Below, in pieces: positions 9,576 to 14,477 of a stretch of 32,000 nucleotides of DNA. The notes beneath the pieces are model-generated. The model did not search any database and was not told the DNA's origin. It saw only the letters and a program-made list of their open reading frames with translations. Source of the DNA: Candidatus Peribacter riflensis (lineage in GTDB: Bacteria; Patescibacteriota; Gracilibacteria; Peribacterales; Peribacteraceae); assembly GCA_001430755.1 (NCBI GenBank), contig CP013062.1:540001-572000 (forward strand), given 5' to 3'. The position numbers and the translations under genes were made by a program. Numbering within the stretch: position 1 is the first letter of the stretch; every line of letters begins with the position of its first letter.

Positions 9576-9637
9576 TGTCACCCTGAGCACTGTCGAAGGG
9601 TGACACGTGCCATGGTTCGACAGAGCTCACCATGACA
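9575..9637. repeat. two hairpin-repeat units (A: 9575-9606; B: 9608-9637, inverted) between convergent glk and tal
   Basis: Unit A is gtgtcaccc-tgagcactgtcgaa-gggtgacac. Unit B is tgccatgg-ttcgacagagctca-ccatgaca, carrying the same 14-nt loop in reverse complement. Confidence 0.75.
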
Positions 9638-10455: not shown

Positions 10456-11253
10456 ATGCAAGTGATGAAACGGCTCCCATTGCTTCTGGCTCTTTGCCTC
10501 CTCACAGCCTGCACCGCAGAGCCGAAAGAGGCCTCGTCGATTTCTTCTGCATCCTCGGCATCGTCCCTCGACTCCGCTCGGGATGACACTGGGGTGTCAT
10601 CGGCATCTTCTCTTTCTTCTACATCCTCTATTTCTTCTCTTGCCTCTTCCTCCTCTGTTTCCTCCCCTAACCCTACCCCTACCCCTACCCCCTACACCCT
10701 ACGTCTCTCCGTCCCCTTCTCGCCCCAGGCCCCCTTTGCGCAATGGGATGCCCTGCATGAAGAGGCCTGCGAAGAGATGAGCCTGCTGCTCGTGCACCAC
10801 TTTCTCGACGGAACGGACCTAAGCCGTGAGCAGGCGGAAACGGAGCTCCTGGCTCTCATGCAATGGGAAGAGGAACACGGCTACCCACAAGATGTGACGG
10901 TTCAGGAGTTGGGAGAAATTGCGGAGAAGTATTTCGGCTACCAGTCCCGCATCATCGAGAACCCGATGGGAGAGGACTTAAAGCGGCTGCTCGCAGACGG
11001 GCACCCCGTCATCGTGCCCGCAGCGGGAAGGGACCTGAAGAATCCCTTCTTCTCGGGCGACGGTCCCTGGTACCACATGCTCGTGCTCACGGGGTATAAC
11101 GAATTCTTCTTCATCACGAACGACGTGGGGACGAAGCGCGGCGAAGGATACGTCTACCGTTTCGGCACCCTGATGAACGCCATCCACGATTGGACCGGTA
11201 TCAAAGAAAACATCCGGCAAGGGACACGAAGAGCACTGATCATCGAAAAATAA
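10456..11253 (+). CDS. lipoprotein with C39-like cysteine peptidase domain (Peptidase_C39_2-like)
   Basis: Lipobox LLTAC in the signal peptide, then a Ser-rich and PTPTPTP linker. This is followed by VPFSPQAPFAQWDALHEEACEEMSLLLV and GHPVIVP...WYHMLVLTGY. Cys and His occur in the contexts I remember for C39-like domains. Confidence 0.65.
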   Translation: MQVMKRLPLLLALCLLTACTAEPKEASSISSASSASSLDSARDDTGVSSASSLSSTSSISSLASSSSVSSPNPTPTPTPYTLRLSVPFSPQAPFAQWDALHEEACEEMSLLLVHHFLDGTDLSREQAETELLALMQWEEEHGYPQDVTVQELGEIAEKYFGYQSRIIENPMGEDLKRLLADGHPVIVPAAGRDLKNPFFSGDGPWYHMLVLTGYNEFFFITNDVGTKRGEGYVYRFGTLMNAIHDWTGIKENIRQGTRRALIIEK

Positions 11254-11264
11254 TCCGTGCCGAA

Positions 11265-11294
11265 GTGGTGGGTGACTCTGTCGGGCCCCACCAC
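11265..11294 (+). repeat. hairpin-repeat unit E (degenerate loop) 11 nt after the C39-like gene stop
   Basis: gtggtggg-tgactctgtcgggc-cccaccac. It has a perfect 8-bp stem of entirely different sequence. Its loop is related to tgagctctgtcgaa. Confidence 0.6.
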
Positions 11295-11361
11295 TGGAGG
11301 CACACCGCTCAAAGGGAAAGAGAGTACGCGAGAGAAAACCGCAGGTTTGCTTTCGCGCATA

Positions 11362-11493
11362 AACGACGTGGGAACGAAGCGCGGAGAAGACTACGTCTAC
11401 CGCTTCGCAACACTCCTCAATGCCATTCATGACTGGACAGGAGTCAAAGAGGAGATTCGTTCTGGAGCGCGACGCGTACTCATCGTGGAATAG
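11362..11493 (+). pseudogene. orphan second copy of the C39-like gene 3' end (last 43 codons)
   Basis: NDVGTKRGEDYVYRFATLLNAIHDWTGVKEEIRSGARRVLIVE aligns without gaps to NDVGTKRGEGYVYRFGTLMNAIHDWTGIKENIRQGTRRALIIE (11119-11250). The upstream part of track ORF 11257..11493 has no similarity to the parent gene. Confidence 0.6.
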
Positions 11494-11495
11494 GA

Positions 11496-11570
11496 TGTCA
11501 TGGTGAGCTCTGTCGAACCATGACATGCGCCGAATTGTCGCAGTTCGACAGTGCTCACTGTGACAATTCG
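11496..11570. repeat. two hairpin-repeat units (C: 11496-11525; D: 11531-11570, inverted)
   Basis: Unit C is tgtcatgg-tgagctctgtcgaa-ccatgaca, whose 27-nt core tgtcatggtgagctctgtcgaaccatg equals the reverse complement of 9611-9637 in unit B. Unit D is cgaattgtcgcag-ttcgacagtgctca-ctgtgacaattcg, a 13-bp stem with one G-T pair. Confidence 0.75.
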
Positions 11571-11588
11571 AATAAGGCTTTCCAAAAA

Positions 11589-11632
11589 ATTTGCGATTCG
11601 GAATCCAAATCGCAAATCTCTCAATCGCAAAT
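11589..11632. repeat. cluster of three AATCGCAAAT 10-mers (one inverted)
   Basis: atttgcgatt 11589-11598, aatcgcaaat 11608-11617, aatcgcaaat 11623-11632. The first two form an inverted repeat around cggaatcca. Confidence 0.6.
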
Positions 11633-11909
11633 TCCTTATCGTGCGATGAGCATCATCAGTGACAACAGAACAATCACCGAGATATTGATGCCCATAAATG
11701 GAACACCGGACGTTCTCTTCCTGATTGGATAACGCATAAGTGGAGAAAAATGAAAGATCGGGGGAAGCCTAGGGACGGGGGGTGAGGAGGGCAATCAACT
11801 GCCCTTGATCACCTACGGAAACAGCAGTGTGATTCTGAGCAAATTTTGTACCCGGCTTTACTCATCCGCCGTAGAAATCTACACTCCTGCTACCTCCTCT
11901 CCCGATCCT

Positions 11910-14267: not shown

Positions 14268-14284
14268 ATGGCGGAAGCGGGAGG
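14268..14284. repeat. 17-nt direct repeat of the tRNA-Ser(UGA) 3' end (att-like)
   Basis: atggcggaagcgggagg at 14268-14284 is identical to 14387-14403. The latter comprises the 16 3'-terminal nt of the tRNA plus 1 flanking nt. Confidence 0.7.
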
Positions 14285-14387
14285 CCGTCTCCGTTCGGCT
14301 TCACTTTGTTCCGCCCGAACTTCGCCGTGCCTATCTGCATTTTCTGGCTCATAGCCAATCACGGCGTAGTCCGCAGACGAAGCCGGA

Positions 14388-14477
14388 TGGCGGAAGCGGG
14401 AGGATTCGAACCTCCGAGACCCTTGCGGGTCTACCTGTTTTCAAGACAGGCCCGATCGACCACTCTGGCACGCTTCC
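14388..14477 (-). tRNA. tRNA-Ser (anticodon UGA), CCA encoded
   Basis: Reverse complement GGAAGCG-TG-CCAGAGTGGTCGATCGGG-CCTGT-CT-TGA-AA-ACAGG-(long variable arm TAGACCCGCAAGGGTCTC)-GGAGG-TTCGAAT-CCTCC-CGCTTCC-G-CCA. Confidence 0.9.

Follow-up and report, generated by a model that had tools for sequence, protein, structure and literature searches.

A diverged second copy of a C39-like peptidase gene end, set at the 3' end of a structured repeat in Candidatus Peribacter riflensis, as a probable scar of gene-end replacement

In Escherichia coli, the e14 element and phage 21 integrate at the 3' end of icd and leave a displaced icd 3' pseudo-end behind; this is the site-specific integration of a prophage of 15-20 kb, with an integrase and a fixed att core. 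A comparable outcome is found in the rhs and cdiA genes, where recombination brings in a new C-terminal end and the older one persists downstream as an unexpressed orphan tip. Finally, classical homology-facilitated illegitimate recombination (HFIR) usually couples insertion with deletion and makes no duplication, and the single-crossover insertion of small re-circularised fragments leaves a duplication of the homologous segment of 109-950 bp (PMC3240628).

The window analysed here comprises 32,000 nucleotides (C1:540001-572000) of the genome of Candidatus Peribacter riflensis (hereafter G000; a single contig of 1.25 Mb, 98% complete), and it was compared with eight congeners (G001-G008) and a short Logan contig (L037, protein P0018). 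In this window, an intact C39-like lipoprotein gene is followed by a structured repeat, element E, and then by a second copy of the gene's own 3' end (Table 1). We refer to the end of the intact gene as tail A (copy X) and to the second copy as fragment B (copy X'). The JGI, NCBI and ENA assemblies agree at the locus with 100% identity and hence the arrangement is real and fixed, not an assembly artefact. Further, 24 same-species contigs encode exactly the same C-terminal 158 residues; three distinct places displayed among them match the window at 100% identity along 3.8-4 kb, and no variant junction is assembled among these 24 gene-carrying contigs. A break in the G002 assembly in the same part of the gene was also considered and is an ordinary contig end, with a 10-nt overlap and no duplication.

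Table 1. Features of the C39-like locus in the window (G000), and gene ends with the same layout in congeners
Feature	Genome	Coordinates	Strand	Basis or remarks
Intact lipoprotein gene, Peptidase_C39_2 (papain-like) domain, 265 aa	G000	10456..11253	+	ORF list, Pfam, AlphaFold
Tail A (copy X), last 44 codons and TAA stop	G000	11119..11253	+	TAA at 11251-11253
Structured repeat element E, between the stop of A and B, 108 nt	G000	11254..11361	+	copies, covariation
Helix P1 of E	G000	11257-11261 paired with 11299-11303		
Helix P2 of E ('hairpin E' of the earlier note)	G000	11265-11294		
Helix P3 of E	G000	about 11326-11358		
Fragment B (copy X'), last 43 codons and TAG stop	G000	11362..11493	+	TAG at 11491-11493
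REP-like 30-nt hairpins, convergent pair (C 11496-11525, D 11536-11565)	G000	11496..11565	.	family pattern
Spacer with TTGCGATT / AATCGCAAAT repeats, 'type S' intergenic region	G000	11566..11635	.	
Conserved 33-aa hydrophobic ORF, next downstream gene	G000	11636..11737	-	synteny anchor across the genus
pheS tail	G001			71 nt; 73% nt, 91% aa identity
tgt tail	G001			stop again within the AATAATC leader
GHMP-kinase start	G007			9/12 differing codons all synonymous; 74% over 43 nt
metG start	G004			95%
GT4 glycosyltransferase start	G003, G005, G006 (flank test); G007, G008 (inspection)			same junction

Compared with the systems described above, the locus shares several features with each and differs from each in others. 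As in icd/e14, the gene end is present on both sides of the insert as a direct repeat, and it is the copy on the insert side that completes the gene; the putatively incoming, mainly synonymously diverged end keeps the gene whole, and the old end would be left downstream. However, the insert here measures 108 nt, the layout is found at gene starts and not at gene ends alone, and there is neither an element-borne integrase nor a common att core at the six target genes (the only tyrosine recombinase of G000 is located elsewhere). As in rhs and cdiA, the putatively replaced C-terminal end persists just downstream, but those systems involve highly divergent toxin tips, immunity genes and diversifying selection, whereas the two tails here are 79% identical, belong to a catalytic fold, and have no partner gene. 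Element E and the neighbouring 30-nt hairpins resemble REP, BIME and REPIN sequences and the Rickettsia palindromic elements in being short, structured, multi-copy and mostly intergenic, and are, like REP-type repeats, occasionally in frame with genes and patchy between species. In contrast to REP/REPIN families, no Y1/RAYT transposase (PF01797) match was found in G000 and, to our knowledge, neither three covarying helices nor a polar relation to displaced gene ends has been described for such families. The proposed one-sided homology, with one joint homologous and the other not, would be like that of HFIR or a single crossover, and dprA, comEC and recA are present in the genome, above Pfam cut-offs. 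The differences are that the presumed resident segment is kept as a duplicate, unlike in classical HFIR, and that the illegitimate joint falls, in six independent loci, beside one particular structured repeat, at its 3' end. Fragment B alone is a scar of recombination of a generally known kind; what is unusual is that six independent gene ends carry the same scar beside a single undescribed structured repeat, at its 3' end.

An earlier note on this DNA had reported, from a hand count, that the last 43 codons of the gene recur in frame with their own stop, with about 36 nucleotide and 9 amino-acid differences and with many codons differing only synonymously. The ungapped alignment of 11119-11247 with 11362-11490 gives essentially the same picture: 35 of 129 nucleotides and 9 of 43 amino acids differ, and the nucleotide differences are distributed 7/4/24 over the three codon positions. 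With the Nei-Gojobori method, 21 synonymous differences over 30.8 sites and 14 non-synonymous differences over 98.2 sites were counted (pS 0.68, pN 0.14, dN/dS ~0.09; Fisher test of synonymous vs. non-synonymous changes, p = 3.5e-8), meaning that both A and B evolved as coding sequence. The amino-acid differences are mostly conservative, and the conserved residues are retained in both copies. Judging from these substitutions, the divergence between A and B appears to be like that between functional orthologues and unlike that of a decaying local duplicate. The view that the fragment accumulated its changes as coding DNA of a diverged homologue, for which the same note had proposed the dN/dS check and named neutral decay as the opposing outcome, is thus upheld, and the grouping of A with B in a tree was also rejected, albeit marginally (p-AU 0.048). 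The stop of tail A, 36 open codons across E, and fragment B are all in one frame. The resulting 78-aa ORF (11257-11493), which overlaps E and B, has no start codon and no Pfam or NCBIfam family, and annotators should be warned that it and similar short calls are not genes. Fragment B is presumably untranslated at present, lying between E and its own original downstream flank.

The host gene carries its domain assignment above the cut-off (Pfam PF13529, E 1.3e-5). NCBIfam gave no match, and the PDB no relative by sequence. The AlphaFold model of the protein, built on 35 homologues, has a mean pLDDT of 84.6, with most of the domain above 90, and matches Alr0975 and the C39-like peptidase 3ERV with a probability of 1.0. 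C105 and H207 are invariant among the 35 homologues and N222/D223 are conserved in at least 90% of them; the protein is accordingly described here as having a predicted papain-like fold with a conserved Cys, a conserved His and a third, Asn/Asp residue. N222-D223, which are nearly invariant, are the first residues of the duplicated stretch, and in the model residues 222-265 contribute two strands to the central sheet and also make up two helices. The 43-residue tail is thereby predicted to be built into the papain-like fold and not to be a module that could be separated from it. One orthologue is present in each congener (71-78% protein identity), and the orthologues of the genus align without gaps over the 185-residue domain. 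Conversion from the dispersed paralogue of the gene at C1:299614 (56% identity) was considered as the origin of one of the tails and rejected, since the tail of this paralogue is only 56-60% identical to either copy.

Element E represents a three-helix repeat of ~100 nt with about 35-37 copies on both strands of G000 and, by BLAST, 9-41 matches in every one of the eight congeners. When 23 copies were aligned, compensatory changes were found in 12 of 22 predicted pairs, and one position of helix P1 shows GC/CG switching in 11 or 12 sequences. The element matched no Rfam family and no ribozyme or intron, and the search of positions 11150-11850 for known RNA families gave only chance matches to miRNA models (E-value >3), which were rejected; the 108-nt insert contains no ORF. 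The stop codon of the host gene sits within the A-rich leader of the element, AATAATC, a motif found directly before P1 in 7 of the 23 aligned copies. The 30-nt hairpins downstream of B belong to a separate REP-like family (TGTCAYSS-TGAGCNCTGTCGAA-SSRTGACA) with 34 matches to this pattern in the genome (up to one mismatch; the full palindromic stem is present in most), often in convergent pairs. The earlier note had assigned the hairpins at 11265 and 11496 to one family, with a member following each copy of the gene end. A hairpin does literally follow each copy, but the one at 11265 is helix P2 of E and the one at 11496 is REP-like; nonetheless, the grouping has some basis because the P2 loop and the REP-like loops have the motif GGTG..CTCTG.CG in common. 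Further downstream, the 33-aa ORF follows the C39 gene in all congeners read (81-88% nucleotide identity) and matched no family.

The similarity between A and B stops at their stop codons because the two continue beyond them into unrelated sequence, i.e., E in the case of A and the REP pair and type-S spacer in the case of B. The only novel joint at the locus is 11361|11362, where helix P3 of E is followed by three bases and then by codon N222 of B. Hairpin E is internal to the element and hairpin C is part of B's own downstream flank, so that, with the sole new joint between the 3' end of E and B, the hairpins do not mark a recombination boundary as had been proposed. The locus was also compared among relatives, as suggested in the earlier note. 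In G008, G006 and G004, E directly follows the stop of the C39 gene (type-E locus), and in G002 and L037 a spacer with AATCGCAAAT repeats stands directly 3' of this stop (type-S locus); both types lie before the conserved 33-aa ORF on the minus strand. The two types, found separately in these relatives, are concatenated in G000, which has tail A, E, tail B, the REP pair, the type-S spacer and the small ORF in series. Such a layout would look like that expected of a recombinant between a type-E and a type-S locus with one non-homologous joint.

The two tails also differ in their affinities. Tail A shows 67-77% nucleotide identity to the orthologues except L037, to which it is 88.4% identical (third positions 77%, pS 0.31), and the segment 11173-11237 is 97% identical to L037 vs. 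60-82% for the other orthologues. The cores of the G000 and L037 genes are 77.9% identical (pS 0.62), and in all other pairs besides A/L037 the similarity of the tails does not exceed that of the cores. Tail A and L037 form a clade in the tail tree with support of 97/94, compared to a weak pairing of G000 with L037 (37/21) in the core tree, and the region downstream of the gene is 82% identical between L037 and G000, the other relatives showing 81-88%, so that outside the tail L037 stands no nearer to G000 than they do. These distances and trees show that tail A has, in all probability, another nearest relative than the core of the gene, which would make the gene a mosaic. L037, this nearest relative, carries the S spacer without E. 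Fragment B, on the other hand, shows 70-77.5% identity to each of the sampled orthologues, as the core of the gene does. Its pN to the orthologues is 0.05-0.18 (<0.14 except to L037) and falls within the range found between the orthologue tails themselves (0.02-0.19, mean 0.11), indicating that B has not been decaying for long. The earlier note had suggested a search for a donor homologue; a donor with tail A followed by E was found neither among the sampled relatives nor in scans of metagenome and genome contig collections with degenerate, back-translated patterns, and these scans gave no further A-type tails. The B-type amino-acid end was found elsewhere only in G008 (genome contigs), with nothing new in the metagenome contigs.

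We also checked the flanks of the E copies of G000, together with ~100 copies from the eight congeners, for direct repeats. In G000, only the copy in the window, 1 of about 37, has such repeats, and in the congeners the same layout occurs seven more times at five loci (Table 1), which corresponds to about 8 of about 135 sampled copies in the genus. In all cases, the intact gene end lies at the 5' leader of E and the fragment runs on into the gene's natural flank; its offset from the 3' end of E is -2 to +6 nt throughout, i.e., in eight of eight cases at six independent loci. The pooled cases show pS of 0.59 and pN of 0.058, a ratio of about 0.05. Where gene starts are affected, the fragment retains the native upstream region and the start codon, and the gene-start fragments read E in antisense, stopping 0-6 nt ahead of the real ATG. 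pheS and metG are essential genes, and therefore the element must have come in at the same time as the spare copy. The GT4 site is empty in G000, G001, G002 and G004. Not all pairs are equally diverged: metG in G004 and GT4 in G007 and G008 have copies that are 95-100% identical, and gene conversion between the copies is visible at GT4 in G005, G007 and G008. The near-identical pairs (metG of G004; GT4 of G007 and G008) fit local duplication or gene conversion as well as they fit import from a close relative.

The same type of scar was also observed with other inserts. A genome-wide scan of G000 for downstream-repeated gene tails revealed one further real case, without E, in an ADP-forming acyl-CoA synthetase-like (acs-like) gene (C1:858207-858760), with an insert of ~410 nt that contains a small lipoprotein-like ORF. 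In metG of G008, a REP-like hairpin, not E, parts a 7-codon fragment from the gene, and the differences are only synonymous. Hence, the scar is a general outcome of gene-end insertions in these genomes. E is the commonest insert, but the congeners were sampled only around E and its enrichment is not statistically established; the constant position of the fragment at the 3' end of E is a stronger regularity than the enrichment.

Taken together, we consider it reasonably probable that fragment B once formed the 3' end of the gene and was displaced by the one-step, homology-anchored insertion of a foreign 'replacement end + E'. According to this explanation, a block from a related lineage, with tail A directly followed by E, would have recombined into the gene at codon 222 in a single step. 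Donor DNA ending at the stable 3' hairpin of E would pair with the gene on one side, by ordinary homologous recombination, and on the other side the 3' end of E would be joined non-homologously to the resident gene. The process would be HFIR or an equivalent ends-in or small-circle single crossover, and natural transformation seems a plausible route; both the mechanism and the route are inferred. The gene would remain intact throughout, and B would be left between E and the native flank (REP pair, type-S spacer and small ORF). A difficulty is that in some pairs the identity between X and X' is too low for a crossover inside the duplicate (e.g., 74% over 43 nt in the GHMP kinase gene), so that the homologous anchor would have to lie deeper in the gene. 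The non-homologous joints themselves show no common sequence among the six target genes; there is a possible TCATGA microhomology at the pheS joint and nothing clear at 11361|11362. That the joint always falls at the 3' end of E could reflect a protected, hairpin-capped DNA end or a polar mobilisation of E. The earlier note had described B as a displaced or alternative C-terminal cassette, and the first of these terms remains appropriate.

As to the direction of the exchange, the import of A into a gene with B as the resident end appears the likelier course, mainly by analogy with the GT4 gene. In G006, this gene carries the insertion and its body is 95-98% identical to that of the 'empty' sister G004. 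The G006 fragment has kept three synonymous states specific to the sister and has acquired extra changes of both kinds, and the gene-side copy differs from G004 only synonymously; the junction codons match those of the fragments of other species. The fragment in G006 is, by its sister-specific states, the resident copy, now decaying, and B would by analogy more likely be the resident end, with A and E as the import.

Alternatively, the exchange may have run in the opposite direction: tail A and E would be native, as in a type-E locus, and B with the REP hairpins and S spacer would have been imported, anchored by homology in the small ORF or on the transketolase side, with an illegitimate joint where E ends at its 3' side. 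This topology is no less simple; a native type-E locus is plausible because three congeners have E after the C39 gene, and the core tree weakly sets G000 beside L037, which has tail A in common, so that tail A could be native and the similarity of the tails the result of a separate exchange. This second exchange is, however, an extra requirement, needed to account for a tail A that is closer to L037 than the core is. In addition, the fragment abutting the 3' end of E in the G006 vs. G004 comparison is the resident allele, and the distance of B to all orthologues equals that of the core. We therefore regard the opposite direction as unlikely.

It is also conceivable that the insertion of E itself makes long target duplications (50-130 nt), whose copies then diverge in place while the fragment is kept coding-like, e.g., by intermittent use after excision or by gene conversion. 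Such a process would account for the fragment abutting the 3' end of E and the intact end abutting the 5' leader in all eight cases, for X/X' identities that span about 100% to 73% as among ageing duplicates, and for the gene conversion noted above in G005, G007 and G008. Yet an unused copy drifting neutrally after local duplication is expected to approach a dN/dS of 0.5, against 0.09 here and about 0.05 in the pooled cases, and the 9/12 differing codons of the GHMP kinase gene are all synonymous. We know of no transposition that yields duplications of this length. Flank duplication is moreover rare among E copies (1 of ~37 in G000, ~8 of ~135 in the genus), and the same scar is found with the non-E inserts of the acs-like gene and of metG in G008. 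Hence, we find target duplication quite unlikely.

The intact frame and coding-type divergence of B would equally be expected if B were the remnant of a tandem paralogue that later lost its first 221 codons, and a dispersed paralogue is present at C1:299614. This origin is nonetheless highly unlikely given that the search of 24 other genomes of the family (40 relatives in total) gave no tandem C39 pair, that an A-B divergence equal to the divergence between species would require many independent losses, that there is no second E after B, and that the deletion would need to stop precisely where E ends at its 3' side. It would also leave unexplained why five other genes show the same layout, gene starts included. 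Finally, it is very improbable that B serves as a functional alternative C-terminal cassette giving two isoforms through DNA recombination, RNA-level joining or translational bypass: although A, its stop, the open codons of E and B share one frame, the conserved residues persist in both copies, and dual use would explain the long coding constraint, the three distinct places displayed among the 24 gene-carrying contigs are identical, the tails differ at nine mostly conservative positions and form the core of the predicted fold, E is without ribozyme or intron match and has an in-frame stop at pheS (G001), an identity of 73% is poor for RecA-mediated switching, and there is just one spare copy. 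A diversity-generating retroelement was rejected as well (mismatches between the copies are T/C, G/C, C/T and others, not adenine-specific, and likewise at pheS; no reverse transcriptase match, PF00078, in the 98%-complete single contig of G000), and a pilE/pilS-type silent cassette is not supported (no variant junctions or mosaics in the three distinct places displayed).

Returning to the displacement of a resident end by an imported one, a further and more tentative reading concerns E itself, which might possibly be a non-autonomous mobile element, passed from one Peribacter lineage to another together with the neighbouring gene end ('adjacent gene end + E'). Such a unit would have a fixed terminus at the 3' hairpin of E and a variable reach into the neighbouring gene, and would integrate via the borrowed homology of the gene end, by which it could land in essential gene ends without breaking them. 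E would then supply the stop codon through its sense leader, or the start codon through its antisense leader, and the resident end would become a fossil. If so, a polar, hairpin-defined end would point to a new way of spread for small structured repeats. More generally, the genes affected include the essential pheS and metG in ultra-small CPR bacteria. If the association with E is mechanistic, it would show an abundant folded repeat spreading between lineages with host genes undamaged, and the displaced fragments would be datable fossils of the alleles resident before each event, giving a handle on the rates and partners of gene exchange in uncultivated bacteria.

Two flank repeats noted during the survey of E copies do not represent gene-end duplicates and were set aside: the one on contig L097 consists of two adjacent E copies, and the other flanks the E copy at 827 kb in G000. 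A short tRNA 3'-end fragment abuts E at the latter copy.

The window copy of element E, the structured repeat of about 100 nt between the two ends of the C39 gene (window 11254-11361), comprises 36 codons that are free of stops in the frame of that gene and run in frame with both its own tail A and fragment B, the displaced copy of its last codons. This shared open frame may be due to chance (about 10%), and in the pheS case E likewise lies in frame, but with a stop. The antisense strand of E is an open frame, with the consensus FV.GKPTVFLPRT.LSL...APAREPARPALR..., in the cases at gene starts (loci L125, L130, L113 and L114); the displaced start fragment there reads across antisense E, and its frame either stops 0-6 nt upstream of the real ATG or overlaps it. 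This position of the fragment stop looks like termination-reinitiation coupling.

On the leader side, the stop of the upstream gene falls inside the A-rich leader of E (AATAATC) at window 11244-11256, at L011 and L013 in the congeners G006 and G004, respectively, and at the tgt gene of G001 (L126), and the C39 protein of G006 and G004 is 6-7 residues longer, extending up to that stop. At the other end, in the species with E directly after the C39 gene stop, the stop codon of a 33-aa ORF lies directly against the 3' end of E. Every congener read keeps this ORF 3' of its C39 gene (81-88% at the nucleotide level), and the ORF matches no family in Pfam or NCBIfam.

Locations of three features
Feature	Location	Strand	Remark
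33-aa hydrophobic ORF (MRYPIRKRTSG...)	window 11636-11737	-	downstream of C39 gene
tRNA 3'-end copy near intact tRNA gene	G000:C1:827285-827310 and 827424-827497	- (tRNA gene)	
ADP-forming acyl-CoA synthetase-like gene, duplicated end	G000:C1:858207-858760 (locus L096)		outside window; domains CoA_binding, Succ_CoA_lig, ATP-grasp_5

The duplication at the synthetase-like gene is the same type of scar as that at the C39 gene, with element E absent: a second copy of the last ~23 codons lies ~410 nt downstream (88% nucleotide identity, differences mostly synonymous), and a small lipoprotein-like ORF is found between the two copies. At the start of metG (L169 of G008 compared with L167, L168 and L170), the insert in G008 follows codon 7 and consists of a REP-like hairpin and a leader rich in A/T, with codons 1-7 duplicated and all three differences between the copies synonymous, while G004 carries E after codon 19. 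The native second codon is replaced by a new start codon in both insertions, and the site is empty in G000, the P. riflensis genome, and in G006.

The transaldolase-C39 segment is flanked by two convergent REP-like hairpin pairs (window 9576-9637 and 11496-11565), with 30-mers at 9608-9637 and 11496-11525 that are 97% complementary; since gene order matches that of relatives, nothing points to an inversion. The G007 locus (L038/L039, 657-2941) has three additional genes in this neighbourhood, none present in G000. One, located between the genes for the ROK kinase and the transaldolase, encodes a four-helix protein that is 23S_rRNA_IVP/bAvd-like; the other two are family-less ORFs between the transaldolase and C39 genes.

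Finally, at a different E copy in G000, the 3' end of E adjoins a ~23-nt duplicate of a tRNA gene 3' end, which lies ~110 nt away from the intact tRNA. It is similar to the 17-nt tRNA-Ser 3'-end repeat that the earlier note had observed at window 14268-14403.
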